Part shown: in pieces, positions 3,976 through 52,411 of the stretch
Layout: each line of letters begins with the position of its first letter
Position numbering within the stretch: position 1 is the first letter of the stretch
Origin: Candidatus Aenigmatarchaeota archaeon
GTDB taxonomy: Archaea > Aenigmatarchaeota > Aenigmatarchaeia > CG10238-14 > SCSR01
Length of the DNA stretch: 64,000 nucleotides
Assembly (NCBI GenBank): GCA_039000425.1
Contig: JAWBPV010000002.1
Span: 14,303 to 78,302, forward strand
Direction: 5' to 3'
Notes under the pieces: model-generated
Seen by the model: the letters and a program-made list of their open reading frames with translations, nothing else
The model's database searches: none
What the model was told of the DNA's origin: nothing
Translations under genes and position numbers: made by a program

Positions 3976-4004
3976 CTCCTTTTTCTTTCTTATAACCTAA
4001 AAGC
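3976..4004 (-). promoter_or_regulatory. conserved early promoter/RBS module (instance 1)
   Basis: The minus strand reads TTTAGGTTATAAGAAAGAAAAAGGAGGTG. The same module recurs at six or more other minus-strand gene starts. Confidence 0.5.
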
Positions 4005-4033
4005 TTTAGGGGATTTTGAAAAAAGGAAACTCT

Positions 4034-4876
4034 TTAGAGTTTCAACAGATCTGCAATATTCGCAAAAGGTGCATCCGGCACTTTTATTGCTTGCAAAATT
4101 CCAGCTTTTTCAATACGCACAATCAAAGAAACATTACGTGGCGCATCAAAGAAAGTATAACCTGTTGCATCAGTTACATAAACTTTCTTACGACTAACTC
4201 CAAGCTTATCCCCAACACGCTTTGGCACATCATAACCCACTTCAACTTCCACGCCAGATGCTGGCTCCAAATTCAAATCAACAGCAAAAACATGAATCCG
4301 ACACAATTCAGGATCGGGCGATGGAGTATAAACAATCGGCCCTCCGATAATCTCAATGCTTGTATCATCTTGAACTAAAAGAAATGTCGAATCAAATTTA
4401 TATCCAGCGCGATATGCATTAATCACGTAAGAGCCTCCGCTGAGATATACAATTGCCTTTCCATTTCCATTAGTAAGCGTCTTAAGTATGGGAGTGCTAT
4501 CACTGATTATTGACAACATAACATCTGGAATTATCTGATTATCGGTGGTTTTAGCACTAATTTCAACACGGAATATACCAAATCTATCAGATATTGCGGC
4601 ATAGTTCTTAACAAAAATATGCTCAAGCAAAGGCTCAAAGCCAACACTGGTATATTTAATCAAATAATCTCCTTCAATATCAAAAACAGAAGAATCAAAC
4701 CTTCGGTAATAAACGCCTGGGAGAAAAGAGCTTTCAGTTAAACTAAAAGGACCAAGCTCGGTATCGTCGGGCTTTTTGATAAAACATTCAACCAAAGCAC
4801 CTGAAACACGATTTCCTGCCTCATCAACAAGTTCAACTAACGCTAAAACCTGTTCTCCTAAATTATAACGAATCAT
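4034..4876 (-). CDS. beta-sandwich protein with two CarboxypepD_reg-like domains
   Basis: 280 aa. Two segments resemble carboxypeptidase-regulatory (Ig-like) domains (…NGNGKAIVYLSGGSYVINAYRAGYKF…). Stop/start overlaps the 871-aa gene. Confidence 0.5.
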   Translation of the reverse strand: MIRYNLGEQVLALVELVDEAGNRVSGALVECFIKKPDDTELGPFSLTESSFLPGVYYRRFDSSVFDIEGDYLIKYTSVGFEPLLEHIFVKNYAAISDRFGIFRVEISAKTTDNQIIPDVMLSIISDSTPILKTLTNGNGKAIVYLSGGSYVINAYRAGYKFDSTFLLVQDDTSIEIIGGPIVYTPSPDPELCRIHVFAVDLNLEPASGVEVEVGYDVPKRVGDKLGVSRKKVYVTDATGYTFFDAPRNVSLIVRIEKAGILQAIKVPDAPFANIADLLKL

Positions 4877-7488
4877 GGTTTCTTTATCCGTCTCTTTCCA
4901 ACAAGCATACTGGGACTATAATAAATCTTCGAATTCGCCGCTGGTGGTGCCTCAAAGATAAATTGCATTTTATTTCTATCAAATTTGACTTCGTCGGGTA
5001 TACTCCCAGGTGGTGATGAGATTTCTGGAGTGTATTTGTAACCAAAAAACCCGTTGCTTTGGTTTAAAAACACATAACCATTATCATTGCCAATTATATA
5101 TAAACCGATTTCACTGCTAGGTAATTGCTGCAAATCCCAAAACGGTGACCACGTATGTCCATCTTTTGATCGACGAATCATTAACGACATTGTTGCCACA
5201 TTAATTCCGCATGCTAAATACAAATCTTTAACTTTAGTAATAAAATAAACACCATTTAGTTGCGGTTCAAATTCTGTTGTTGATAAATTCAATCGGCCGA
5301 ATACCGCAGTCGACATGTCATTCATACTTGTCAATCTTATACACCACAAAGAGTCGGCGTTGATCATCACGGGAATCCAGTAGTAGTTACCCGATGGTAC
5401 AATCAAAGGTCCAAATGTAGGTTCGTTTGATGATATATCATATGAAAATGGAAGTATTGCATTTGACGCCAATACAGGTGCAAAACCCGAAATAACTGTG
5501 CCATTCGCCTTTATGGGGCAGCCAATTATAAAGTTTCCACCGCCTGGAACATTTGGGACAATAATATCATCGACAGTGTCGATTGTTTGATTCATTAAAT
5601 CGATTTTGACAAAAGACAATCCAATTGAAACTCCGTCATCACGCATTATACAATAGTAAAACGCATCATTGATTTTAACTGTATTTCCGCCAATGAATCG
5701 CAAAGAAGTTGAGTAATTTATTGGCAAAAAAGTAGCATTTTTAAGTTCTTCAAGTGTTGTTCCCGAACGCATATATGCTCGCTCTTCGAGTCGGATTTCA
5801 TAAATCAAATTATTATCATAAATAAAGAGTTCTCCCTGAAACCCCATCGGAGTAAATTCAACGGGTTCGCTTAACGATTCTGGTATTGGTGGTATATATG
5901 GAGTTTTCCAGTCTTCAGAAACGTCTATAACCGATATTTTACGTAGTACGCCATCTCCAACTAAATCCGCCCAAACATCGATTGCTTCGTTTGGAATAGA
6001 CAGTAATTGTGGCACATCAACATTAAATGTCGTTGTAACTCCATCACCTTCCAAAACACCCGCAGGTTTAATATTTGCAATAATTTTTTCTTCTGTTTTC
6101 TCAATTCTCTCATAAAAATAAGGTTGTAAAATTTCCATTGCGTAATTTAACGGTACAGAGTCTTTACAATAGCTCGGGATATCCCCGATCGGATTTTTAT
6201 TTGGTGAAGTATCATATACTATCTCTTCCTCCGAGCCAAAGAAAAACCCTTTTGCATAGTTAAAAATGTATCCATTTTCTCTGAACACACCACGAAACAT
6301 ATCAGGTCCGTCGGCAATAATAATTTTTCTCGGGTCAACTCCGAAACTACGTAACCATTCTTCATTTCTCAAAAAAGACTGATAATAAAGAAATGCAAAA
6401 AGCGATTTAGAAATTGAACTGAATTTCGTGTATACACCCGAACCAATATTTTTTGTTCTTATCAAACATGAGAATGGATAAAACATTGCACAACAATTTA
6501 AAAAAGATATTGAAGATGACATTTGTGAGAAATCATAGAGTACAAATGGAATTGAAGCAGGTGAAAGCCAAATGTAACATCTATCAAAAACAATTGACGG
6601 AAATCCAACCGAAAAAAATCCCTCCGTTAGATCTAAAAATGCCATCGCATTTATAAAACAAGATTTAAACACTAAAGTTGGCAGCATCGCCGACATTGTA
6701 TGAACTGTAAATTGAGGTTCTCCATTGCTTCGTACCTCAAAAACAGGTTCGCCTGCTTTATGTCGTTGGGTTATTTGTGAAGTATCTATTCTAAGACAAT
6801 TTAAATAAATTCTGTCGTTCGTATGCGCATCAAAATCAAGCGCTGGTGAAATGTGAACTTCGGTTCGATCGTTTGCGGGATCGTAATTCATTGAAACGAT
6901 ATCAAAAATATTAAAAATGGGGAAAAATATGGTTTTGAATGCAAATTTTCTTATTGTGTTCCATGGCGGAACATCGATATTTCCTGCAACATAAATTACA
7001 TTACTTCCAAATGGTGCGTCGGCGACGAGATATGTATTGTAATTTTGGGCATTCATTTGTTCAATGTTGGGATAGATTCCTACGTACCCGCCACTCCAGT
7101 CTATCGCACCCCATACCGGTACGTCTCTAATACCCGTATTTGGTTCAATATCTTCAAGAATTACACCTACATTATCAACATTTGCAACATGGCCTATTTC
7201 AAGTCCTTCGAAAAATGCTTTCGCATCATTGACAATTGAAACTTTGCCAAAGATATGACCATTATAACCAACAAAATGAACAGCTTTGTTATTTAACAAT
7301 ATATCTCCGAATGTATTTCCTATTACAACGACAGTGTCGCCGCTTTCAAGAATAGAATCAACACCTTGCCATGTTTGTTTCGCGGTTTGCCGAGTTAGTC
7401 CATCGTTATCATCATTGCCATTCATTTCATCCCAATAAATCCGTTTTCCCGCTTTAAAAAGACTTTCCATGAACTCGCTTAAAATCAT
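4873..7488 (-). CDS. large right-handed parallel beta-helix (pectate-lyase fold) protein, paralog A; candidate tailspike/depolymerase
   Basis: 871 aa. The N-terminus KRIYWDEMNGNDDNDGLTRQTAKQTWQGVDSILESGDTVVVIGNTF matches the classic G-x-D-x-N-D-G...GDT-V/I signature of beta-helix proteins. Its C-terminus (DRNKMQFIFEAPP..KIYY) aligns with 24099..26669. Confidence 0.7.
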   Translation of the reverse strand: MILSEFMESLFKAGKRIYWDEMNGNDDNDGLTRQTAKQTWQGVDSILESGDTVVVIGNTFGDILLNNKAVHFVGYNGHIFGKVSIVNDAKAFFEGLEIGHVANVDNVGVILEDIEPNTGIRDVPVWGAIDWSGGYVGIYPNIEQMNAQNYNTYLVADAPFGSNVIYVAGNIDVPPWNTIRKFAFKTIFFPIFNIFDIVSMNYDPANDRTEVHISPALDFDAHTNDRIYLNCLRIDTSQITQRHKAGEPVFEVRSNGEPQFTVHTMSAMLPTLVFKSCFINAMAFLDLTEGFFSVGFPSIVFDRCYIWLSPASIPFVLYDFSQMSSSISFLNCCAMFYPFSCLIRTKNIGSGVYTKFSSISKSLFAFLYYQSFLRNEEWLRSFGVDPRKIIIADGPDMFRGVFRENGYIFNYAKGFFFGSEEEIVYDTSPNKNPIGDIPSYCKDSVPLNYAMEILQPYFYERIEKTEEKIIANIKPAGVLEGDGVTTTFNVDVPQLLSIPNEAIDVWADLVGDGVLRKISVIDVSEDWKTPYIPPIPESLSEPVEFTPMGFQGELFIYDNNLIYEIRLEERAYMRSGTTLEELKNATFLPINYSTSLRFIGGNTVKINDAFYYCIMRDDGVSIGLSFVKIDLMNQTIDTVDDIIVPNVPGGGNFIIGCPIKANGTVISGFAPVLASNAILPFSYDISSNEPTFGPLIVPSGNYYWIPVMINADSLWCIRLTSMNDMSTAVFGRLNLSTTEFEPQLNGVYFITKVKDLYLACGINVATMSLMIRRSKDGHTWSPFWDLQQLPSSEIGLYIIGNDNGYVFLNQSNGFFGYKYTPEISSPPGSIPDEVKFDRNKMQFIFEAPPAANSKIYYSPSMLVGKRRIKKP

Positions 7489-9440: not shown

Positions 9441-9653
9441 TCACTTATTCAATAATTCTTCTATAACCGTTGTAATACATCCTCCCCACCACAATATTGA
9501 TAATACAATCGCGAAGATGGAGAAACCTTTGTTTACGGTTTTCTCCACTTCTTCTTCTTTCCAATAATATGTCATAATGCTCGCGATTAAACAATATACC
9601 ATAAATCCCTTAAATATTTCCTCCAATAACGCGAAAATTAAATTGCTAACCAT
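9441..9653 (-). CDS. small two-TM membrane protein
   Basis: 70 aa. Preceded by the conserved promoter/RBS module at 9659-9688. Confidence 0.5.
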   Translation of the reverse strand: MVSNLIFALLEEIFKGFMVYCLIASIMTYYWKEEEVEKTVNKGFSIFAIVLSILWWGGCITTVIEELLNK

Positions 9654-9658
9654 TTTTC

Positions 9659-9688
9659 ACCTCCTTTTTCTTTCCTTATAACTAAAAA
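9659..9688 (-). promoter_or_regulatory. conserved early promoter/RBS module (instance 2)
   Basis: The minus strand reads CGTTTTTAGTTATAAGGAAAGAAAAAGGAGGTG, then 6 nt, then ATG. Confidence 0.5.
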
Positions 9689-9741: not shown

Positions 9742-9959
9742 TTAGAGCAGCTTCCACATTTCCCAAATGACTGGTAACCATAAAGGCACGACCAGCCACC
9801 CGGCAAGGCTTCCTCCAAACAACACCAAATCTGGCACCAATACCAGCATAGTTGCGAAGAACATCAATACGAACACTCCTACAAGTTCATTCGGCGGATT
9901 TATGAAAATAAAAACAACCAAGATAATCAATCCAATTAACAAATTGACTAAACAAGGCA
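9742..9959 (-). CDS. small membrane protein (start revised to the RBS-supported ATG)
   Basis: The track ORF starts at 10008, but the promoter/RBS module (9966-9998) lies inside that extension. ATG 9959 (MPCLVNLLIGL...) follows GGAGGTG with a 6-nt spacer. Confidence 0.5.
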
Positions 9960-9965
9960 TTTTTT

Positions 9966-9998
9966 CACCTCCTTTCTTTTTTTCCTTATAACTAAAAT
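9966..9998 (-). promoter_or_regulatory. conserved early promoter/RBS module (instance 3)
   Basis: The minus strand reads TTTAGTTATAAGGAAAAAAAGAAAGGAGGTG. Confidence 0.5.
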
Positions 9999-10010
9999 GC
10001 CCCTTCATTT

Positions 10011-10143
10011 TTAGTCTGACTTGTCAATCATTTTATTCAAAAATTTCTTGACATAATCAAATAATTCGTCCAATTTATGAACATATTTAGGATCCTTAAT
10101 GCACGCTTTTATGAAATCGTTGTCACACTCTAAAGTAAAATAT
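10011..10143 (-). pseudogene. 5'-truncated remnant of a seventh member of the 11414-14612 paralog family
   Basis: The minus-strand frame gives YFTLECDNDFIKACIKDPKYVHKLDELFDYVKKFLNKMIDKSD*. This matches the conserved ECDDEFV.KCIE..KYVHKLDELF.YVEKFL core of the family. An in-frame stop follows Y at the 10143 end of the fragment and there is no start codon. It abuts the upstream end of the tnpB element. Confidence 0.55.
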
Positions 10144-11413
10144 CAGAAACTAATCACTAAATATATAGAAATCTATTGATATTGATAGAATTTTATTGTG
10201 CAACTTTAATATGAAAAATCAGCTATGATATTTGGATTGATTTTTAATGTTTTTCATGATAAATTATGACTATGATTCGGTCAGCGAAATATACATTGAA
10301 ATTCGCTACAAATAAAAAGAAAAATTATCTTAATCAATTGTTTGACATTTATGTTAAATATCTACAAAAAACAATTGATTTAATGTGGAACAAACAGATT
10401 CCAATCAAGAAGAAGTTATCATCAAAGAAGATAACATGGATGGACGATTTAGGCGGTCAATATAAAAATTTGATATATCAACATGCGTCTCGGATTGTAA
10501 GATCGTGTCGGTTTAAAAAGGGAAAAAAACCGGTGATAAAAAATCCGACTATAACTTTTGATGCGAGAATGGTGAACATTGAAAAATCTCATAACACGTT
10601 TGATAAATGGATCAGACTGAAACTACCATTTATCAAAGATGGATATAAAAATCGTCGGATTGAAATTTTAATCCCGTTAAAGGAGCATCGGCATAGTCTA
10701 AAGTTTAAAGATTGGGAATTAGTTAAATCAGTTCGAATCAACAGGGATTTTGTCACTTTGATATTTAAAAAAGAAACTCCGAAGCCGAAGGAGAACGGCA
10801 AAATAATCGGAATTGATATTGGCTACAAATATTTGATTGCGACTTCGGAAGGCGAACTAATCGGGTCTGAGATGGAACGAATCTATGAAAAGATAGCAAG
10901 GAAAAGACAAGGTTCGAAAGCATTTAAACGAGCATTGATCGAGCGTGATAATAAGATAAATGAAATCATTAACAAAAATCTTGATTTAAGCAATGTAAAG
11001 ATTTTGAAAGTTGAGGACTTGAAAAATGTGAAAAAGAACAGTCATGGTCGGATTAGAAGAAAATTTAATAATAAACTACAAAGGTGGTCATACCCGAAAG
11101 TTATAGATAAGCTGAAACGTGCATGTGAGGAAGAAGCCGTGCAATTCCTCCGTGTGCGTCCAGCTTATAGTTCAATTACATGCCCGAGGTGTCAATTCCG
11201 ACATAAAAGTAACCGTATTGGTGAAAAATTCAAGTGTCGGAATTGTGGCTACGTTAATCATGCCGACATCGTCGGTGCGATAAATGTAGCCAATTGGGAG
11301 CCTATAGTCCCCAATGCACCAAAAACCTCAGTTCAGGAACAAATTTCTATAAACTGAGGAACTATGACCTCAATGATTCTAATGTTTCAATAGTTATTAT
11401 TCGTTCCATAGCT
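10144..11413 (+). mobile_element. IS200/IS605-family insertion (tnpB-only); ends approximate
   Basis: The only long plus-strand gene in a minus-strand block, with no tnpA. A truncated host-family gene lies on its left flank. Boundaries are inferred from the flanking CDS ends, not from identified LE/RE hairpins. Confidence 0.45.
10266..11357 (+). CDS. tnpB: TnpB / IS605 OrfB-type RuvC-like nuclease
   Basis: 363 aa. RuvC-I IGIDIGYKYL, RuvC-II KVEDLKNV, and a C-terminal Zn finger plus RuvC-III (CPRCQF...CRNCGYVNHADIVGAINVA). Confidence 0.85.
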   Translation: MTMIRSAKYTLKFATNKKKNYLNQLFDIYVKYLQKTIDLMWNKQIPIKKKLSSKKITWMDDLGGQYKNLIYQHASRIVRSCRFKKGKKPVIKNPTITFDARMVNIEKSHNTFDKWIRLKLPFIKDGYKNRRIEILIPLKEHRHSLKFKDWELVKSVRINRDFVTLIFKKETPKPKENGKIIGIDIGYKYLIATSEGELIGSEMERIYEKIARKRQGSKAFKRALIERDNKINEIINKNLDLSNVKILKVEDLKNVKKNSHGRIRRKFNNKLQRWSYPKVIDKLKRACEEEAVQFLRVRPAYSSITCPRCQFRHKSNRIGEKFKCRNCGYVNHADIVGAINVANWEPIVPNAPKTSVQEQISIN

Positions 11414-11962
11414 TCAACCAGCTTCTTTGTTTAATTTGTCAATCATTCTCTTTGATGCAACAACCTTGAATATTCTCGTATTTTTTAATTCCTGCATTAT
11501 TTCATCTTTAATTTGATTTGACCTCTTAATCATTTCACTTAGAAATTTTTCAATATACTCAAACAATTCATCTAACTTATGAACATACTTAGCATCTTCA
11601 ATACACTTCTTCACAAATTCATTATCAAAATTTAAAGGTCTAAAAGATTCACTTTCAAGACTTGATTTAGAGATTTGAATATATAATTCGCCATTTTGGA
11701 AAAAAAAGCCAAAATCAGTATATTTATTTAATATGCGATCTATTTTGTCGGCTTTACATCCCAACCTCTTCAATCCTTGCAAAAATGCAATAGCTGCTTC
11801 GTCTTCTCCAGAAATATTTCCAAACTGATTCTTCAGTATTTTAAGGCGATCCGCAATTAGCTCATTAATTTCCTCGCGTAAATCTCTTAAAGTAGAATTA
11901 TCAACAAATCTTTCCCTAAAAATTTCTTGAATTAACTTTTCGACTGAAGAACTAGACCTCAT
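11414..11962 (-). CDS. tandem paralog family P1 (unknown function)
   Basis: 182 aa. Shared blocks: FGNISG..AIAFLQGLK..., DEFVKKCIEDAKYVHKLDELFEYIEKFL, ...QIKDEIMQELKNTRIFKVVAS. Own promoter/RBS module at 11972-11993. Confidence 0.65.
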   Translation of the reverse strand: MRSSSSVEKLIQEIFRERFVDNSTLRDLREEINELIADRLKILKNQFGNISGEDEAAIAFLQGLKRLGCKADKIDRILNKYTDFGFFFQNGELYIQISKSSLESESFRPLNFDNEFVKKCIEDAKYVHKLDELFEYIEKFLSEMIKRSNQIKDEIMQELKNTRIFKVVASKRMIDKLNKEAG

Positions 11963-11971
11963 ACTGCTTAT

Positions 11972-11993
11972 CCCTCCTTTTTTATAACTAAAT
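11972..11993 (-). promoter_or_regulatory. conserved early promoter/RBS module (instance 4, short variant)
   Basis: The minus strand reads TTTAGTTATAAAAAAGGAGGG, then 9 nt, then ATG 11962. Confidence 0.45.
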
Positions 11994-12045
11994 TTACCGA
12001 TTAACTTCAGCTACATCTAAAATTTATTCTTTTGAATTAATTTTC

Positions 12046-12579
12046 TCATTCAATTTGTCCAACCATTCTTTGCAATGCAACAATTTTAAACGTCTGTGTT
12101 TTTTCCAACTCCTGCTCTATCTCATTCTTAATTTGATTTGCTCTGCTAATGAGTTTATCCAAAAATTTTTCAACATACTCGAACAATTCATCCAACTTGT
12201 GAATATATTCAATGTCTTCAATACATTTCTTTACAAATTCATCATCAAGTTCAAAAGGCTCAAAAGTCAAATACTCCTCAAACTTATTAGACCCATCAAT
12301 ATATAATATGCCATTCCCTAATGAAAATCTGAAATCAGTATATTTGTACAGCATATGATCTATTTCTTCAGTTTTATGTCCCAATGCTTTCAACCCTCGC
12401 AAAAACGCAATTGACATTTCCGTTCCTCCAGAAATATCACCAAAATGCTTATACAATGCCTCAAGCCTGTTAACAATTAATTCATTAATTTCTTTGCATA
12501 AATTTTCTAAAATAGAATTATCAATAAAATTCTCTTCACGAATTTCTGCCAACTTTTTAACCAGGTTACTAGATTCCAC
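12046..12579 (-). CDS. tandem paralog family P2 (GTG start)
   Basis: 177 aa. Carries the ...DDEFVKKCIEDIEYIHKLDELFEYVEKFL... block. Upstream is CAATAAGAGGAGGTGAGAC-GTG, a compressed variant of the module. Confidence 0.65.
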   Translation of the reverse strand: MESSNLVKKLAEIREENFIDNSILENLCKEINELIVNRLEALYKHFGDISGGTEMSIAFLRGLKALGHKTEEIDHMLYKYTDFRFSLGNGILYIDGSNKFEEYLTFEPFELDDEFVKKCIEDIEYIHKLDELFEYVEKFLDKLISRANQIKNEIEQELEKTQTFKIVALQRMVGQIE

Positions 12580-12630
12580 GTCTCACCTCCTCTTATTGAT
12601 TAATTACTCGTTTTAAACTGTTTTTCATTT

Positions 12631-13104
12631 TCAACGTCTGCGTTTTCTTTCCAGTTCTCGTCTCAACTTGTCAACCACCCCATTTAGAAATTCTTCAACG
12701 AAATCAAACACCTTATCCAATTTATGAACATACTTTGGATTCTCAACACATTTTTCCACAAATCCATTATAACAACCCAAAAGCTCGAACGCGTCCCATC
12801 TATCACTATTACTCTCATAGGTAGTTGCTCTAACAAATAATCCAAATTTACTCAAATGGAATCTGAAAATATCATACCGATTTAGTATTTCATCAATCAT
12901 TTCAATTTTATATTTTAATGCCTTTAACCCTTCCAAAAGTGAAGTAGTTGCATCTGATTTTCCAGAAATACCACCGAAACGATCATATAACATTTCAACT
13001 CTGCCCTCAATTAACTTATCAATCTCTCTGCGTAACCTTTCAAGAGTCTGATCATCAATGAATCTTTTTTCTTCTATCAACTTTTTAACTAGATCAGATT
13101 CCAT
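12631..13104 (-). CDS. tandem paralog family P3
   Basis: 157 aa. Divergent middle but retains ...KCVENPKYVHKLDKVFDFVEEFL. Upstream GTTATGAAGGGAGG resembles the module. Confidence 0.6.
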   Translation of the reverse strand: MESDLVKKLIEEKRFIDDQTLERLRREIDKLIEGRVEMLYDRFGGISGKSDATTSLLEGLKALKYKIEMIDEILNRYDIFRFHLSKFGLFVRATTYESNSDRWDAFELLGCYNGFVEKCVENPKYVHKLDKVFDFVEEFLNGVVDKLRRELERKRRR

Positions 13105-13163
13105 ATGTACCTCCCTTCATAACGTTGCTTTAGTAAAATTAAAAATAAAATCAATAGGGAACA

Positions 13164-13694
13164 TTATTTGCTTTCGTCACTTTTAGCCAATCTGTCAAGC
13201 AATTTCTTCGATGCAACAATTCTAAATGTCTGAGTCTTTTTCAGCTCATCCATTATTTCATTTCTAATTTGCTCCGATTTATTAATCGTCTCCTTCAGAA
13301 ATTTTTCAATATAATCAAACACTTCATCCAATTTGTGAACGTATTTAGGATTCTCAATACATTTTCTTACAAACTCATCATTACAACGCAAATCAAATCT
13401 AATACCAGATGTATGAGGCGTATATGAGTACCAAACATACAAATCGGCATCTGTAAAGCCAAAGCGAAAATATTTATGATTAGTCAATATATCATCTATT
13501 TCACCAACTTTATATTCTAAAGTCTTCAATCCTTGCAAAAATGCAACGGCCATACCTGCCTCTCCAGAAATATTACCAAAATGCGAATACAATACCTTAA
13601 GTCTCTCAAAAATCACACGATTAATTTCTTCCTTCAAACTTGCAAAAGTGAGATTGTCAACAAACTTTTCTTCACGCGAGGTTAACTCTCCCAT
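13164..13694 (-). CDS. tandem paralog family P4
   Basis: 176 aa. FGNISGEAGMAVAFLQGLK...CNDEFVRKCIENPKYVHKLDEVFDYIEKFL...QIRNEIMDELKKTQTFRIVAS. Confidence 0.65.
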   Translation of the reverse strand: MGELTSREEKFVDNLTFASLKEEINRVIFERLKVLYSHFGNISGEAGMAVAFLQGLKTLEYKVGEIDDILTNHKYFRFGFTDADLYVWYSYTPHTSGIRFDLRCNDEFVRKCIENPKYVHKLDEVFDYIEKFLKETINKSEQIRNEIMDELKKTQTFRIVASKKLLDRLAKSDESK

Positions 13695-14104
13695 TTGTCT
13701 CCTCCGATGAAATCTCCTTTGATTCTGCTCAGAAAATTCTCAACAAAGGCAAATATCTCATCAATTTTATACACATATTTAGGGTCCTCAATACATTTTC
13801 TTATAAATTCATCATCTGCACCAAATTCAAACGTCTTTTCTTCATCACCATAATGAAACAAAACTTGAAGTCCAAAATGGTCAAGCCAAAGTTCACAATA
13901 ATCATACTCGCTAAATAGAAGCGAATCTATTTCTTTAGTACTATAATCATAAGATTTCAATTTTTCCAAGAATTCAATTGCAATCTCCATTTCGCCAGTA
14001 ATAGTGCCAAAACGTTTATGCAACATATTAATCTTTTTCGAAATAAGATCATCAATTGTCTTTCTCAATTCTACAAGCACATTATTATCAAGGTATTTAT
14101 TCAT
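13682..14104 (-). CDS. tandem paralog family P5 (C-terminally shorter)
   Basis: 140 aa. ...ADDEFIRKCIEDPKYVYKIDEIFAFVENFL. Overlaps P4 and P6 by a few nt, so translationally coupled. Confidence 0.6.
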   Translation of the reverse strand: MNKYLDNNVLVELRKTIDDLISKKINMLHKRFGTITGEMEIAIEFLEKLKSYDYSTKEIDSLLFSEYDYCELWLDHFGLQVLFHYGDEEKTFEFGADDEFIRKCIEDPKYVYKIDEIFAFVENFLSRIKGDFIGGDKWES

Positions 14105-14612
14105 TTTCTCCCTCCGCCAATTTATCTAACAATCTCTGCGAAGCAACCTCTCTAAATACCCGCGTCTTCTTTAATTCATTCATAATCTCGTCTTTAATCC
14201 TCTTTGACGAATTCCTCACTTGAATCAAGAAATTTTCAACAAAATCAAATAGCTCATCCAATTTCCAAACATATTCTGAATTATTGATACATCTTCTTAC
14301 AAATTCATCATCACATTCCAATCGAAATTCTCGCTTGTAATCATTACCATCAATCGCTTGGACAACAAGAGCTCTATCATTCAATTTAAAATCAATCGGT
14401 CTATAGCTCAAAAATAGTTTTGCCGAATCCGTGCGAAATCCTGATAGACTCAATCCTTGCAAAAATGCAATGGCCATATCAGAATCTCCACGAATTAGAC
14501 CAAATCTTTTGTAAAGTAATTCAATCTTCTTTCTAATCAAACTATTCAATTCTTCTTTCAATTCTTCAAATGTTCTACAATCAATTAATTTTGATTTTTG
14601 TTCATTACTCAT
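14097..14612 (-). CDS. tandem paralog family P6 (start revised)
   Basis: The track ORF begins at 14699, but the promoter/RBS module (14617-14641) lies inside that extension. ATG 14612 (MSNEQKSKLIDC...) follows GGGAGC with a 6-nt spacer, giving 171 aa. ...ECDDEFVRRCINNSEYVWKLDELFDFVENFL. Confidence 0.65.
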   Translation of the reverse strand: MSNEQKSKLIDCRTFEELKEELNSLIRKKIELLYKRFGLIRGDSDMAIAFLQGLSLSGFRTDSAKLFLSYRPIDFKLNDRALVVQAIDGNDYKREFRLECDDEFVRRCINNSEYVWKLDELFDFVENFLIQVRNSSKRIKDEIMNELKKTRVFREVASQRLLDKLAEGENE

Positions 14613-14616
14613 GTTA

Positions 14617-14641
14617 GCTCCCTTTTTTTTTCTTATAACAA
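14617..14641 (-). promoter_or_regulatory. conserved early promoter/RBS module (instance 5)
   Basis: The minus strand reads TGTTATAAGAAAAAAAAAGGGAGC. Heads the P6-P5-P4 coupled unit. Confidence 0.45.
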
Positions 14642-14757
14642 GTTTTAATCCGCAAAATAAATTTAGGTAATAATTATTTAAAAACCATGAATTAATCACA
14701 AAAAAACGCTACAAAGCTAAAATAAAGGAAGAGTGAGGCCACTCTCCCTTTTTATTA

Positions 14758-36375: not shown

Positions 36376-37437
36376 TTATTTTGGTCTGAACCAAGGATAA
36401 TACAATCCACCAAGAATCAAAGCTGCTTGCACCTCAGGAAGAAGCAAAGCGCCTAAAGTTGCACCTAAGAGCATAGGTAACTTTCTATAACGAAGTCTTA
36501 TAGGCTCAAATCTTCCTCTAGGAATAACTACAGTAGGACGAGTAAATCCTCTTGCAATTAAAGCTCCCATAGTAGGATATGCTATTATGCGAAGCATGTC
36601 CCGAGCTGCTTCGCTGGAGGCAGGCATGCTAGATCCTTTCCAAAGAATTCCTCTTCTTTCTAAAATTTCTCCTAGTCCTCTTACACGCGTGCCCAATCCA
36701 TAGATACCACGGCCAAGAAGTCTCAAAACTTTTTGCTTAAAAGTGGGAGGAGGGGGAGGAGGAGCTGGAGTCATATATCCTTCTACTGGAGTAAAAGGCC
36801 CTCCTGCCAAAAATTCCAACTCTTTAAGTGTTTCTTCAGAGGGTAATGGAGCAGCTCCAGGTGGCAAAGCTATTTCTGCAGGAGGTGGGGGAGGAGGTGG
36901 AGGAGGTTCTACCGCTGCAGGAGGTGGAGGAGGCGCTACAGCCGCAGGAGGAGGCTCTACCACTGCAGGAGGTGGAGGAGGAGGCGCTACAACTGCAGGA
37001 GGCGGAGGAGGCGCTACAGCCGCAGGAGGAGGCTCTACCACTGCAGGAGGTGGAGGCGGAGGCGACGGTGCTGCTTCTGGCGGAGTTGGACGTTCGAAAA
37101 GCCCTTTTACTAATCTTTTAATTCCGGGAACAACTCCAGGAACAAACAAAGTTCCGAGAGCTCCTCCAACTAGAAGAGGCCAGATTGGATATCTCAACGT
37201 GGGGCGCATTCCACGTAGTAATTGCAAACGTGTTGGCATTACTAGCCTGGGACCAACCAAGCCTCTTAGCGCTAAAGCACCTATGGCAGGACTGAAATAT
37301 GGAAGGGCTTGATAAAATTCCCGCAAAAAAGGAGGAGGTGTAGGAGGAATAGGAGGAGGTGGAGGTGGCGGTTTTTTCTTCTTACCAAAAATGAATTCCC
37401 ACACGTTTTCAAGGAATCCTATTTTCGTTACATCCAT
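36376..37437 (-). CDS. proline-rich protein with two glycine-zipper modules and a central (PPPPAVVEPPPAAVA)n repeat
   Basis: 353 aa. N-terminus KKKKPPPPPPPIPPTPPP. Central ~70 aa are almost pure P/A/V/E. The module pair flanks the repeat. Confidence 0.6.
   Translation of the reverse strand: MDVTKIGFLENVWEFIFGKKKKPPPPPPPIPPTPPPFLREFYQALPYFSPAIGALALRGLVGPRLVMPTRLQLLRGMRPTLRYPIWPLLVGGALGTLFVPGVVPGIKRLVKGLFERPTPPEAAPSPPPPPPAVVEPPPAAVAPPPPPAVVAPPPPPPAVVEPPPAAVAPPPPPAAVEPPPPPPPPPAEIALPPGAAPLPSEETLKELEFLAGGPFTPVEGYMTPAPPPPPPTFKQKVLRLLGRGIYGLGTRVRGLGEILERRGILWKGSSMPASSEAARDMLRIIAYPTMGALIARGFTRPTVVIPRGRFEPIRLRYRKLPMLLGATLGALLLPEVQAALILGGLYYPWFRPK
36880..37095. repeat. GC-rich tandem repeat (78-nt higher-order unit duplicated) encoding the poly-Pro/Ala tract
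   Basis: gcgctacagccgcaggaggaggctctaccactgcaggaggtggagg... at 36933 recurs at 37011. About 60% GC within a ~35% GC genome. Confidence 0.6.
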
Positions 37438-48529: not shown

Positions 48530-51500
48530 ATGGATTTCAAAAAGTATATAGCTGATAGAGACTTTTACTCAGCTGAAACTGCAAATTATCCACAATATCT
48601 TTTGATTGGAGATGGTCTGCTTTCTATACCATTGATAATTGTAGATAGAAATAATCTCTATGTATATATATCGCCATTTGAATTCATTCAGAATGGTACA
48701 ATCTGCAAGATGCTTAAAATGCAAAAAGTAAAATGCAGTCAATTGGAAACAGGAAAAACTTATTATCTCTGCGTGGACGTGAATACCACTTCAGATAACA
48801 ATCCTCCCAGATTCTATGTTCTAGAGAGAATATTGCCAGGTTTATTACTAATTGCAGAATTGGTAATTTTAGAAACTGATGTTAAAATCAATTATCCACA
48901 GATTGTTCATTATAAAGGATTACGGGAAAGCACAAAGGAAGCATTTGATACGGAAGTTCAAGTTCAAGGATATCTTTACTATGATAAAGATAATAATGTT
49001 ATAATTGGCGAAGATGTAACTTTAAGATATGGAATCGATGTTTTTAAATTCGAAAGAATTCATTTTAAACCAATTCTTTTTCCAGAAATTCCAGCAGATA
49101 TAATTCCAAACCATTTAATTATATGGGACAGGGAATTTTGTCAGATTCCTTGGTCGGCATTTTTAGCAAATAATATAACACAGGAATATAACTACGTTTC
49201 GAGTTTTTGCGACAGCACAACCGTTATCCTTCCAGCCTATAATAGAATACTTCATTTTCACTGCGCGCAAGAGTTATACAATCCTCATTACGCTAGTATC
49301 TCATTATGGTCGGAAACGCTTTCGTATCCACCTCATTCACATGAATTTCAACTATTTGCAGAGACATCTATAAAACTCAAAAGCAGAGATAATATTGTTG
49401 TTGGAGTTTCGACTACTACCGCTGTACATGGAGGATTTATTTTCAGAAGATTTATAGTAGAAAGTCCAACTTCAGTTTCAATTAATTATGATACTTATTA
49501 TTTTGCTGAAGATAGTTCCAATATTAGATATAATTTTGCAATTGACGACACAAAACTTTATTTAATCTTTAGAAGAACTGTAGGATTAACACCATATGTA
49601 GAAATTTTAAAATGGGATTACATGCAATTTGGAGCTAAAACTGTTAAATCTTACCCTGGAATGGAAGCTACAGACGTTTATATTTGGTATGATCAAGAGC
49701 TATTGCATTGCTTTGTTTATAATGAATCTGATCAAACACTCATGCATTTCATTTTATCTGCTTCAAGCCTTGCAGAAATAAAACCACCCTCTGTATTCAT
49801 TCAACCTTGTTATAGACCTTTTCCAATAGTGCACAAAGGAAGATTTATGCTTGCATATCAAACCTCTGCGGATTCACCTTTGTACTTCTTTGACGGATCT
49901 CGTATTCGTACAATAGACGAAACTCCAGGAAATTTTCAATTTGGATTTCAAGAAGGGATATTACTTGTATGTAATCCTTCTACTGGAAAAATTTATAAAG
50001 TCTATTTGGACAAGATAATTGAATTTCCTGCTCCTAGTGGACAAGAGCACTTGTTGAGAATTTCGGCACTAGGAGCTGTATGGGATACTGCCAGAGATAC
50101 TTCGACCACTCCACATAAAACGCGCTTAGTTCTAATTTCTGAAAAAAACTTAGAAATACCAAATTATTTGCCTGTTATTGGAGCAGTTCATGCAAGCCAA
50201 AATAATCCAGCTTTCCTCCCAAATAAACCAATGGGGCATGTTGTCATTGGCGATCCGGCTTTGCTACATGAAGCCGAATTGAATATAGATAAATTATACG
50301 AATATATCACACAAAATGCAGATGGTTCATATACAGAAGTTGAAATTAGAGGTAAATTAAGAGTAAGACCAGGAACTGTTTTTCCTAGACTAAAACTTTC
50401 TGGTGGTGAATTAATAACTGATAGATTGCGTACGACTTCTGTAATCTCAAATACACAATATAGCTCAGATGATCAGAAAACTTTTCAATTGCTAAACACT
50501 ACTTTACAGGCGCATGGTATCTGTCCAGGGACTATAATACAAAGAGAGAATTTCACACAACGAGTAGTAACTATAGATATAACAAATAGAAGATTTACAC
50601 TTGATGCTCCATTAGGAGGGAGTTCTTCTTCGCCTTTGAATGTTCGAAATGATATTGTCTTAGAAAATATGACGATTCGGCATCCGCAATCTACAGGAGT
50701 CGTTACAGGAGATAATTTAAAAATAAAGAATAGTGAATTTTTGAATGATTTAATTGTGTCCGGAGGAATGATATATGCTACAAACAGTAATTTTAAATAT
50801 GTAAGCGCAAGCAACTCTCATGTAGGATTTTATGCCTGTAATTTAGAAAATATACAGCTTTTAGGAACGATTCCTTCATATTACATTATGCAATCTTTTG
50901 TAGGCACTTCATTAACTAATACAATCAGAGGTTCTACAAAAATTGAAAATTTTAACTATCCAAATAATAGATTTGTCTGGCTAGGTGGCGACACACCATT
51001 ACAAATATACACTTCAGGCACAGATAATGTTACATCAATATCCAGCTATACTCACGCGTCTACCACGACCGCTTGCGGCACTTACAGTAAAGTTTATTCT
51101 GAACGCGTAGCAATAGGGAACACACTTGAAATTACCGCTTCTAGAATTCCTCCAAGCACTGCTTACGGAATATATATGAATATTGATGCTCCATATGCAT
51201 ATGGACTTCATCTTTCAAGTAGTCCAAATGATCAAACCACAGGCCTTTTTATTCGAAGCAATACAGGAGCTATAATTTCTGGAATAACTCAAGGCATCTA
51301 TGCATATGGATCTTCCTATGGAGGACGTTTTGTAGCGCCTAATACAGGTCTCTATGTTTCTGGACTAATAGCAATAGAAACGAATGCAACTGGAACTTCT
51401 GCTAAAGGAGTATCAATTTCAGTCACAGGAAATAGTAGCTATGGAATTTATGCCAATGTTAGTGGAGCTGGAACTAGAGGAATCCACGCAAGTGCTATAG

Positions 51501-52411
51501 GAAGCGATGCTTATGGAGCTGTGCTTTATGGACAATATGCCGGAGTTTATGCGAGTGGAAGTTCTTATGGAGGGATTATGGTGGGAAATCCTGGAATTTA
51601 TGCATCAGGATCAGTTGGAATCGCAGCAGTTGCAACTGGAGATTCTGCTAAAGGATTATCAATTTCAGTCACAGGAAATAGTAGCCATGGAGTTTATGTA
51701 AATGTTAGCGGTACTGCAGCTAGAGGAATTCAAACAAGTGCTACGGGATCCACTGCTTATGGAGCTGTACACTATGGACAATATGCCGGAGTTTATGGAA
51801 GTGGAGGTTCTTATGGAATCATAGCAAGAGGGAGTACTGGAATTGAGGTATCAGGATCCATTGGAATATATGGAAGAGGCAGCACTGGAATTTATGCATC
51901 AGGAGCTACTGGAGTTTATGGAACAGGACCTGTAGGAATTTGTGCGACAGGATCTACTGGAGTCTATGCATTAGGATTTCCTGCAATTGCAACTAAAGGG
52001 TCAGTAAAAATCAATGAAGGAAGTTTGGTCGTTGAAGAAGATATCGATTGCCAGCGTCATTTGACCATATGGGGAAGAACACAAATAATACACACTTCTG
52101 CAGAAGTTACTATTCCTTATACATTAGGCAGCGGGGCCGCTAGATTAACTACGCGGCTTACTCGAGGGGTTGAAATTCTTATGACCAATTCAGATGCATC
52201 CACGTCTCACTACACCATTCTTTATACAGATGCTACTGCAGGGGGAATGCACTATGGATTATATTGTGACCATAGTACCATTAGAATATATCCCACTTCG
52301 GAAGCTAGTATTACATCTTGGACTGGAGCAGCAGATGGAACTATATGTATTGATACTGCAGGACACTTATATTATAAATCAAATGGAACATGGTATCGAG
52401 TTAAAACTTAA
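48530..52411 (+). CDS. tail fibre protein with Gly-rich repetitive region
   Basis: 1293 aa. The C-terminal third is built of GxYAxG/GS(T)G.. repeats. Contains the tandem duplication at 51395-51890. Confidence 0.65.
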   Translation: MDFKKYIADRDFYSAETANYPQYLLIGDGLLSIPLIIVDRNNLYVYISPFEFIQNGTICKMLKMQKVKCSQLETGKTYYLCVDVNTTSDNNPPRFYVLERILPGLLLIAELVILETDVKINYPQIVHYKGLRESTKEAFDTEVQVQGYLYYDKDNNVIIGEDVTLRYGIDVFKFERIHFKPILFPEIPADIIPNHLIIWDREFCQIPWSAFLANNITQEYNYVSSFCDSTTVILPAYNRILHFHCAQELYNPHYASISLWSETLSYPPHSHEFQLFAETSIKLKSRDNIVVGVSTTTAVHGGFIFRRFIVESPTSVSINYDTYYFAEDSSNIRYNFAIDDTKLYLIFRRTVGLTPYVEILKWDYMQFGAKTVKSYPGMEATDVYIWYDQELLHCFVYNESDQTLMHFILSASSLAEIKPPSVFIQPCYRPFPIVHKGRFMLAYQTSADSPLYFFDGSRIRTIDETPGNFQFGFQEGILLVCNPSTGKIYKVYLDKIIEFPAPSGQEHLLRISALGAVWDTARDTSTTPHKTRLVLISEKNLEIPNYLPVIGAVHASQNNPAFLPNKPMGHVVIGDPALLHEAELNIDKLYEYITQNADGSYTEVEIRGKLRVRPGTVFPRLKLSGGELITDRLRTTSVISNTQYSSDDQKTFQLLNTTLQAHGICPGTIIQRENFTQRVVTIDITNRRFTLDAPLGGSSSSPLNVRNDIVLENMTIRHPQSTGVVTGDNLKIKNSEFLNDLIVSGGMIYATNSNFKYVSASNSHVGFYACNLENIQLLGTIPSYYIMQSFVGTSLTNTIRGSTKIENFNYPNNRFVWLGGDTPLQIYTSGTDNVTSISSYTHASTTTACGTYSKVYSERVAIGNTLEITASRIPPSTAYGIYMNIDAPYAYGLHLSSSPNDQTTGLFIRSNTGAIISGITQGIYAYGSSYGGRFVAPNTGLYVSGLIAIETNATGTSAKGVSISVTGNSSYGIYANVSGAGTRGIHASAIGSDAYGAVLYGQYAGVYASGSSYGGIMVGNPGIYASGSVGIAAVATGDSAKGLSISVTGNSSHGVYVNVSGTAARGIQTSATGSTAYGAVHYGQYAGVYGSGGSYGIIARGSTGIEVSGSIGIYGRGSTGIYASGATGVYGTGPVGICATGSTGVYALGFPAIATKGSVKINEGSLVVEEDIDCQRHLTIWGRTQIIHTSAEVTIPYTLGSGAARLTTRLTRGVEILMTNSDASTSHYTILYTDATAGGMHYGLYCDHSTIRIYPTSEASITSWTGAADGTICIDTAGHLYYKSNGTWYRVKT
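51395..51890 (+). repeat. ~246-nt (82-aa) tandem duplication inside the tail fibre gene
   Basis: gctaaaggagtatcaatttcagtcacaggaaatagtagc... at 51401 recurs at 51647 with ~88% identity (SAKGVSISVTGNSSYGIYANVSG... / SAKGLSISVTGNSSHGVYVNVSG...). Confidence 0.6.

Follow-up and report, generated by a model that had tools for sequence, protein, structure and literature searches.

Introduction

The TnpB-only (IS1341) architecture, viral TnpB proteins and sense RNAs which overlap the 3' end of the gene have been described before (PMC10691335, PMC4615843), and phage-borne tnpB genes are known from anecdotal reports (PMC11437467; bioRxiv 10.64898/2026.02.14.705889). According to PMC10690162, characterised TnpB proteins use an omegaRNA from the 3' end of the mRNA, cut DNA in a guided manner next to a target-adjacent motif (TAM), and the cut is then repaired. 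The concepts of non-restorative and of free-standing homing have been reviewed in PMC13565253. Here we describe a tnpB gene on a stretch of 64,000 nucleotides of Candidatus Aenigmatarchaeota archaeon (assembly GCA_039000425.1, contig JAWBPV010000002.1, positions 14,303 to 78,302), which is called the window in the following. The gene adjoins an array of six paralogous phage genes, P1-P6, and what appear to be the remains of a seventh, P0.

We consider it likely that this gene forms an IS200/IS605 element of the IS1341 (TnpB-only) type, which belongs to a TnpB lineage known almost exclusively from phage-like contigs and lies inside the partly deleted remains of P0. The locus in the window mostly confirms known biology; less ordinary is the picture at the level of the clade.

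TnpB Protein

The protein encoded by the open reading frame (ORF) 10266-11357 (Table 1) matched the Pfam profile Cas12f1-like_TNB (E = 3e-16) and, over its full length, the PHROG 506 profile 'transposase' (3e-26). The NCBIfam profile guided_TnpB was matched by residues 13-344 with 101.3 bits, a narrow pass of the cutoff of 100 bits. A database search yielded 468 homologues. Residues D184, E250 and D334 as well as C306/C309/C324/C327 were invariant in an alignment of 32 clade sequences, and a CxxC...CxxC zinc-finger/TNB insertion is present between RuvC-II and RuvC-III. The RuvC motifs and the zinc finger which the initial annotation had recognised are thus borne out, and the alignment, in which catalytic residues might have been missing, revealed a complete triad.

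A structural model of TnpB was built with AlphaFold2 (AF2) from the 32-sequence clade alignment (predicted local distance difference test score, pLDDT, 86.9). Foldseek matched this model over its full length to AsCas12f (E 1e-15, TMq 0.62-0.66) and also to the TnpB of ISFba1 (8iaz; E 3e-12) and to Fanzor2. By sequence, the nearest solved proteins were Cas12f, Cas-phi-3 and TnpBs, each matched in the C-terminal RuvC/TNB half only, with Cas-phi-3 as the best single-sequence match in the PDB (8.6e-11). The protein is full length, without a C-terminal truncation. Given the intact triad, the zinc finger, the family matches and the fold, we therefore regard it, as judged by its residues and modelled structure, as a catalytically intact TnpB. 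Translation probably starts at the second ATG (10272), since the homologues begin with M-[I/K]-R-S.

The matches to Cas-phi-3 and, at the level of the fold, to Cas12f would also suit a phage-encoded miniature effector of CRISPR type V, either Cas12f or Cas-phi-like. Several observations contradict this interpretation and make it very improbable. No CRISPR-like repeat array was found anywhere in the 64-kb window, and the NCBIfam profile Cas12f2 scored 40.7 bits, far below its cutoff of 450, while guided_TnpB passed its own. Furthermore, the conserved RNA described below forms one continuous stretch with the ORF, as is the case for omegaRNAs. A nuclease-dead TnpB-like repressor (TldR-type) which regulates neighbouring phage genes would fit the convergent orientation of tnpB and the P array and a guide located in the head of a paralog. 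However, the D-E-D triad and the four zinc-finger cysteines are intact throughout the 32 clade members and the protein is not shortened, which contradicts a TldR function and leaves it with a slighter chance still than the CRISPR effector.

Right End of the Element and Mobility of Its Relatives

Since the exact element has no second copy elsewhere, its relatives were compared, and the right end was deduced from approximately 115 related tnpB loci collected for this comparison (designated by L numbers). Three of them, L016, L020 and L022, have a 1,077-bp tnpB block in common, with 95% nucleotide identity and otherwise unrelated 4-kb flanks. This block begins approximately 9-12 nt before the ATG and stops 12 nt past the stop codon, at ...GCAAAGAACTAT. 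Judged from this alignment, the unit practically lacks a left end beyond the ORF. Two more distant pairs of loci from bacterial metagenome-assembled genomes (MAGs), L098/L101 and L102/L105, also end with ...ACTAT (...GACTATT in L098/L101), and the nearer relatives L011, L015 and L009 diverge directly after GCAACTAT.

The same terminal motif is found in the window, where ...TAAACTGAGGAACTAT is followed by GACCTC; the end of the element reads ...GGAACTAT. Consequently, the sequence comparison places the right end between 11365 and 11366, directly after AACTAT, and not at about 11400 as first proposed.

The loci L034 and L039 (tnpB at 4001-5071 in both) are 98% identical over 2.3 kb of left flank and tnpB. 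The identity stops 19 nt past the stop codon, which corresponds to the right end as inferred above; beyond it the flanks are unrelated and hence the guides are unrelated too. In these sequences a recombination breakpoint lies exactly at the end of the element. Nucleotide homology throughout the clade is limited to the tnpB ORF plus or minus approximately 10-130 nt. By these boundaries, close relatives were recently mobile as ORF-sized units with sharp ends.

The tnpB ORF of L013 (approximately 5060-5190) continues into a GC-rich stretch which resembles the T-arm of a tRNA (GGACTCGAACCCC). ARAGORN detected no tRNA adjoining this gene. The right end of L013 looks replaced or truncated.

Predicted omegaRNA Scaffold and Guide

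Folded as RNA, positions 11190-11365 form four stem-loops (SL1 to SL4, Table 1) with a minimum free energy of -64.6 kcal/mol versus -34.2 kcal/mol for dinucleotide shuffles (z=-8.55). Since SL1 pairs zinc-finger codons, the protein and the RNA both constrain this stretch. G-U pairs are abundant, which makes the structure specific for the sense strand.

Covariation was analysed for the SL1-SL3 region in an alignment of 42 homologues. In this alignment 75.9% of the cells were paired versus 36-50% when the partners were slid by 1-3 columns, and the covariation score was 0.373 versus approximately 0.1 for slid partners. None of 500 column shuffles reached any of the observed pairing measures. Both sides had changed in eight of 12 pairs of SL1 and in five of eight pairs of SL3; SL2 is lineage-specific (62.7% paired). 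RNAalifold recovered SL1 and SL3 independently, i.e., without the structure being supplied. SL4 is kept in L011, L015 and L009 with different stems (CCUCAGUU/AACUGAGG, GCAAAU.../...AUUUGC and GCAAG/CUUGC) and ends 6 nt from the boundary in each case, so that the stem is held by compensatory change. The compact relatives lack SL4. The scaffold matched no Rfam family at E<=1.

The folding and the covariation argue for a conserved, strongly structured RNA which overlaps the last 170 nt of tnpB and ends at the element boundary, and this RNA is the predicted omegaRNA scaffold. The initial annotation had expected an omega/reRNA scaffold at the 3' end of the element; an RNA is indeed predicted there, at 11190-11365 instead of 11250-11413.

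With a length of approximately 16-20 nt, which is assumed from characterised TnpBs, the guide would begin at 11366 and comprise GACCTCAATGATTCTAATGT to approximately 11385. It would be derived from the flanking DNA. Allowing up to 3 mismatches, no other site in the window matches this sequence, and the closest other site has 5 mismatches. The corresponding positions in P1-P6 differ from it by 7-11 mismatches and are therefore not guide targets; self-targeting of these paralogs was rejected.

The Seventh Paralog P0

On the minus strand positions 10142..10011 read YFTLECDNDFIKACIKDPKYVHKLDELFDYVKKFLNKMIDKSD followed by the stop codon, with a TGA directly upstream and no start codon. A DNA profile of P1-P6 (nhmmer) matched this tail at E=6.7e-20, from profile position 281 to 435 of 528, as the only additional match in 64 kb. 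This confirms the earlier description of a 43-codon startless fragment of the C-terminal core of the family. The tail is 71% identical to P1 (11512-11637) at the nucleotide level, and in its 81-nt core it shares 68-75% identity with P1-P6, which are 64-80% identical among themselves. Eight of the nine family-invariant residues of this stretch are retained. Since the identity falls within the range of P1-P6 and the residues are kept, P0 is, by sequence, a distinct seventh paralog without visible decay and did not arise by recent copying of a neighbour.

The right end of the element and the stop codon of P1 are only 48 nt apart. A minus-strand ATG (11409-11407) starts 4 nt after this stop codon, and the 14 codons 11409..11368 read MERIITIETLESLR in a frame which is closed by a TAG shortly after it enters the element from the right. 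The best ungapped match of this peptide to the family profile is the N-terminal motif in columns 15-28 (P3 EKRFIDDQTLERLR, P1 RERFVDNSTLRDLR), and its distance from the Met to the motif equals that in P5 (MNKYLDNNVLVELR). Equally high scores were obtained by 0.6% of random 14-mers of the window and by 0.9% of shuffles of the peptide. On the basis of this motif, P0 is probably split, the head lying on the right side of the element and the tail on the left side, instead of 'decapitated' as the initial annotation had it. We call the split probable and not proven because the similarity is undetectable at the DNA level.

If the head holds, P0 lacks profile columns 29-112 or so, approximately 85 codons. 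The element taken as 10144-11365 leaves head and tail in frame (MERIITIETLESLR-S-YFTLECD...). This in-frame join, with a left flank ...AAAATAT and a right end ...AACTAT, is suggestive, though the boundary was partly chosen on that basis. With approximately 85 middle codons gone, insertion alone is insufficient and a deletion or recombination is needed besides. Of the insertion or recombination in a phage gene that had been proposed, the position of tnpB in the paralog array beside a truncated member therefore stands, and insertion as the sole event does not.

The same loss of codons would also suit a truncation of P0 independent of tnpB, by internal deletion or unequal recombination, with tnpB landing later in or beside the dead gene. 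Arrays of paralogs with 64-80% identity are prone to recombination, and the 122 nt 10144-10265 cannot be assigned to the element. Against such separate events, head and tail abut the element on both sides and the homology ends only a few bases away from the inferred boundaries, a coincidence that is improbable for independent events. We thus consider an independent truncation rather unlikely. When the element is instead held responsible, as we favour, the middle of P0 may have been lost via an adjacent deletion at the left end, via recombination between two copies of the element, or via recombination between the 64-80% identical paralogs. Regarding the two-copy model, the 64-kb window contains one tnpB copy, and no second copy or fragment was found in it.

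A search of 5.8 billion proteins with the P1-P6 profile returned only the six copies, all from the source genome of the window. Within the databases searched, P1-P6 form an ORFan family as judged by sequence, without a match in Pfam, NCBIfam or PHROG. The AF2 model of the family (pLDDT 84.4) combines helices with a small beta-sheet and has a long helix at its C-terminus, and no PDB fold matched it at E<=0.001. Furthermore, tblastn detected no P1-P6 paralogs near other tnpB loci, and neighbouring genes in L005 and L008 which had been considered as family members were rejected (hhalign probability <1%).

Left End and Target Site

The left boundary is a candidate only and lies somewhere between 10144 and approximately 10257. 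Homology of the P0 tail to the paralogs stops at approximately 10142. In 400-nt windows the region 10144-10265 has the lowest GC content of the locus (0.25-0.29); a promoter scan of this left region gave no excess over shuffles, and no copy of the SL4 stem was seen by reading the left-end sequence. In the relatives the left ends measure approximately 9 nt (the compact trio), approximately 60 nt (L005/L013) and 66-124 nt (bacterial copies).

The candidate left flank is ...AAAATAT (10137-10143), which is the same in L102. The left flanks of the relatives vary between subclades (TCTAG, TTTAG and AGATAA directly before the boundary), and no single TAM emerges from them. No flanking direct repeat was found at the element. 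The TTAC-like target suggested earlier could not be upheld; positions 10135-10138 read GTAA on the plus strand, i.e., the motif is on the wrong strand, and the right end has no TTAC.

Phage Lineage of tnpB

The closest TnpBs (61-65% identity) are encoded on phage-like contigs. In the loci collected, TnpBs with at least 50% identity were found on metagenome contigs only, with phage-like gene content and without tnpA. Copies in genome bins reached at most 52% identity in the best segment, and the closest of these were short partial matches; the carriers are CPR, DPANN, Magnetobacterium, Desulfobacterales and others. Three of the closest loci carry homologues of genes of the window phage, i.e., L005/L056 (MoxR 45% and DUF2201 44% amino acid identity in L005), L011 (g126, 47%) and L013 (g150, 40%). 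By these shared genes, the tnpB lineage appears to be resident in a family of related phages, in the interval between replication and lysis, and not fresh from an insertion sequence (IS) of the host.

Neither tnpA nor a Y1 or serine transposase was present among the called neighbours of tnpB here or in annotated relatives. The neighbouring genes, together with the motif scan for Y1 transposases discussed below, agree with the initial annotation of a phage-borne TnpB-only element without tnpA. The TnpBs of the clade have 350-375 aa, and the scaffold lies almost wholly inside the ORF.

In L005 (6137-8678) a D12-class DNA methyltransferase is seemingly split into ORFs of 179 and 279 aa by a 366-aa ORF without a Pfam match. 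With an hhalign probability of 0.4%, this ORF was rejected as another TnpB; it may be a further selfish gene that was inserted here.

The phage residence raises the question whether the gene is still an element at all. It could be a fixed, domesticated phage nuclease, i.e., a non-transposing RNA-guided weapon or a free-standing homing gene directed against related phages in co-infections, with the remnants of P0 as an old scar. The MoxR, DUF2201, g126 and g150 homologues (40-47%) in the contigs of the closest TnpBs suggest long residence in a single phage family and in the same replication-to-lysis region, tnpA and a left-end hairpin are missing, and the GC content of tnpB equals that of the phage. 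The end of the L034/L039 homology exactly at the right end is expected from recombination triggered there, and non-restorative homing into co-infecting phages has been discussed (PMC13565253). However, the orientation of tnpB and its exact neighbours differ among related phages, other members of the clade were plainly mobile recently and have sharp ends, and the P0 tail is conserved like the intact paralogs, contrary to an ancient scar. The nuclease mechanism would be the same as in our favoured interpretation and the mobility status alone differs. We regard the fixed nuclease as possible, with the balance of these observations against it.

Locus Layout

The coordinates of the locus and of the compact units in the relatives are summarised in Table 1. 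Between 1051 and 23678, tnpB is the sole plus-strand ORF which reaches 100 aa and is not overlapped, and on this count it is the lone plus-strand gene of a minus-strand block of approximately 23 kb, as described initially. The exact element is known as a single copy, carried by four contigs which all have the same context.

Table 1: Features of the tnpB locus and of compact units in related loci.
Feature	Position	Strand	Remarks
P0 tail	10011..10142	-	43 codons + stop; C-terminal core of P1-P6 family; TGA upstream at 10145-10143
AT-rich stretch 5' of tnpB	10144..10265	+	candidate left end and promoter
tnpB	10266..11357	+	363-aa ORF; RuvC D184/E250/D334; zinc finger C306, C309, C324, C327
Predicted omegaRNA scaffold	11190..11365	+	overlaps tnpB 3' end; folding, covariation
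SL1	11193-11204 / 11234-11245	+	pairs codons of both CxxC halves of zinc finger
SL2	11246-11292	+	
SL3	11293-11315	+	clade-conserved GGGAG...CCCC hairpin
SL4	11326-11359	+	followed by single-stranded AACUAU 11360-11365
Right-end terminal motif AACTAT	11360..11365	+	boundary between 11365 and 11366; from copies in relatives
Predicted guide GACCTCAATGATTCTAATGT	11366..11385	+	flanking phage DNA; placed by right-end boundary
Probable P0 head	11366..11409	-	ATG 11409-11407, then MERIITIETLESLR; N-terminal motif match
Intact paralogs P1-P6 (140-200 aa), then DUF2201, MoxR-like AAA protein, PolA	11414..14699	-	
1,077-bp tnpB unit	L016 3992-5068; L020 3991-5068; L022 2287-3363		

The record of the window sits in a MAG of Candidatus Aenigmatarchaeota, a DPANN archaeon (GCA_038999945.1), and a 113.8-kb version exists as well. 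Its genes are tailed-virus-like and include a family A DNA polymerase, an M15 peptidase, an 871-aa tail-like protein and MoxR/DUF2201. An 88-aa ORF (9742-10008, minus strand) to the left of the P0 tail probably encodes 72 aa; the start in the NCBI annotation is the internal Met at 9960, which has AAAGGAGGTG upstream, and the same ribosome-binding-site block occurs again at 9653-9673. Two in-frame tandem repeats were observed. One at 36890-37064 has a 78-nt GGAGG-rich (Gly/Ala-coding) unit and lies in the ORF 36376-37437 (minus strand); the other at 51385-51968 has a 246-nt unit with 24/48-nt sub-repeats and lies in a 1,293-aa ORF (48530-52411, plus strand), which probably encodes a fibre or adhesin-like protein.

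Proposed Mechanism and Weight of the Evidence

The processing of omegaRNA from tnpB mRNA has reportedly been described for characterised TnpB systems (PMC10278001). By analogy to characterised TnpBs (PMC8612924, PMC10278001, PMC10690162), the window TnpB would be associated with RNA production and would perform RNA-guided, TAM-dependent cleavage. In this model the tnpB transcript would be processed to an omegaRNA which consists of the scaffold 11190-11365 and approximately 16-20 nt of flank (11366-11385). The complex of TnpB and omegaRNA would cut DNA where the flank sequence adjoins a TAM, i.e., the element-free allele of P0. Such targets may arise after excision of the element or may be brought in by a sibling phage during co-infection. 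Repair by recombination with a copy bearing the element would then restore or spread it. The resident copy itself should be immune, as TAM and target are kept apart by the element.

Several points weigh against a mobile element inside the remains of P0. A search for hairpins at both ends had been suggested; the right end has SL4 with AACTAT, while no hairpin was found at the left end, where 10136-10270 as single-stranded DNA showed no excess of structure over shuffles (z=+1.03). The stretch 10144-10265 resembles no upstream region of the relatives, either by alignment or by blastn-short versus all loci and the window. The exact element has no copy elsewhere from which its left boundary and TAM could be read. 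Y1-transposase motifs were absent from all loci and the window in a scan that is only a motif heuristic. Moreover, the assignment of the P0 head hangs on a match of 14 residues (p approximately 0.006), and the 48 nt of the right flank have no significant DNA-level similarity to the paralogs, including by nhmmer. Finally, neither a sister genome nor an empty site was found by blastn against INPHARED, by a protein-pattern scan of IMG/VR or by exact scans for the guide and the core of the fragment, and a look-up of P1 led back to the known context.

At the level of the clade a further interpretation can be put forward. The clade might consist of phage-restricted, transposase-free, ORF-sized TnpB/omegaRNA units which spread by RNA-guided homing between co-infecting phages and are re-targeted by recombination at the right end, here with deletion of the middle of a multi-copy gene. 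Owing to the scaffold inside the ORF, the 1,077-bp units and the L034/L039 pair, we keep this homing-gene interpretation open, as a tentative proposal with well under an even chance.

The annotation of the window is settled as one selfish, predicted RNA-guided nuclease element, with its omegaRNA and right end delimited and its guide predicted, and one probably split, partly deleted pseudogene of an ORFan family. The comparison set adds a phage-associated TnpB lineage whose mobile unit is as small as 1.08 kb and contains no transposase. If RNA-guided homing between phages is true, these genes would be a natural case of 'non-restorative homing', so far mainly a matter of theory, and the clade would further offer self-contained editors of very small size.

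Comparison with Known Systems

The locus shares with elements of the IS1341 type the lone tnpB without tnpA, a predicted structured sense RNA which extends over the 3' end of the gene to the right end, and a predicted guide from the flank. Other common features are the terminal hairpin (SL4) with a short end motif and, in the relatives, sharp-ended copies in different sites. It differs from them in that the window element has no recognisable left-end hairpin, is present as a single copy and is accompanied by a deletion in the target gene. In addition, the compact relatives comprise the ORF with approximately 9-12 nt before and 12 nt after it, and the lineage at or above 50% identity was found on phage-like metagenome contigs only.

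Domain order, fold, RuvC triad, zinc finger and a predicted omegaRNA by the right end are the same as in the TnpBs of ISDra2 and ISFba1. In sequence, the TnpB of ISDra2 is remote (profile E 3e-8, C-terminal half only). Compared to both, the window TnpB is smaller (363 aa) and its element has the end motif AACTAT.

Among proteins of solved structure, AsCas12f and Cas12j/Cas-phi come closest to the RuvC/TNB half in fold and sequence, and Cas-phi is also phage-borne. In contrast to these effectors, the window gene has no CRISPR array, has its predicted guide RNA fused to the gene and is much smaller than Cas-phi.

The Seg/Mob homing genes of T-even phages are likewise selfish nuclease genes between or inside phage genes which are expected to cut related genomes lacking them, and the mosaic breakpoint of L034/L039, which coincides exactly with the end of the element, is a further likeness. 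However, recognition by the window nuclease would be RNA-guided and not protein-based, and the resemblance to Seg/Mob is a functional analogy only.

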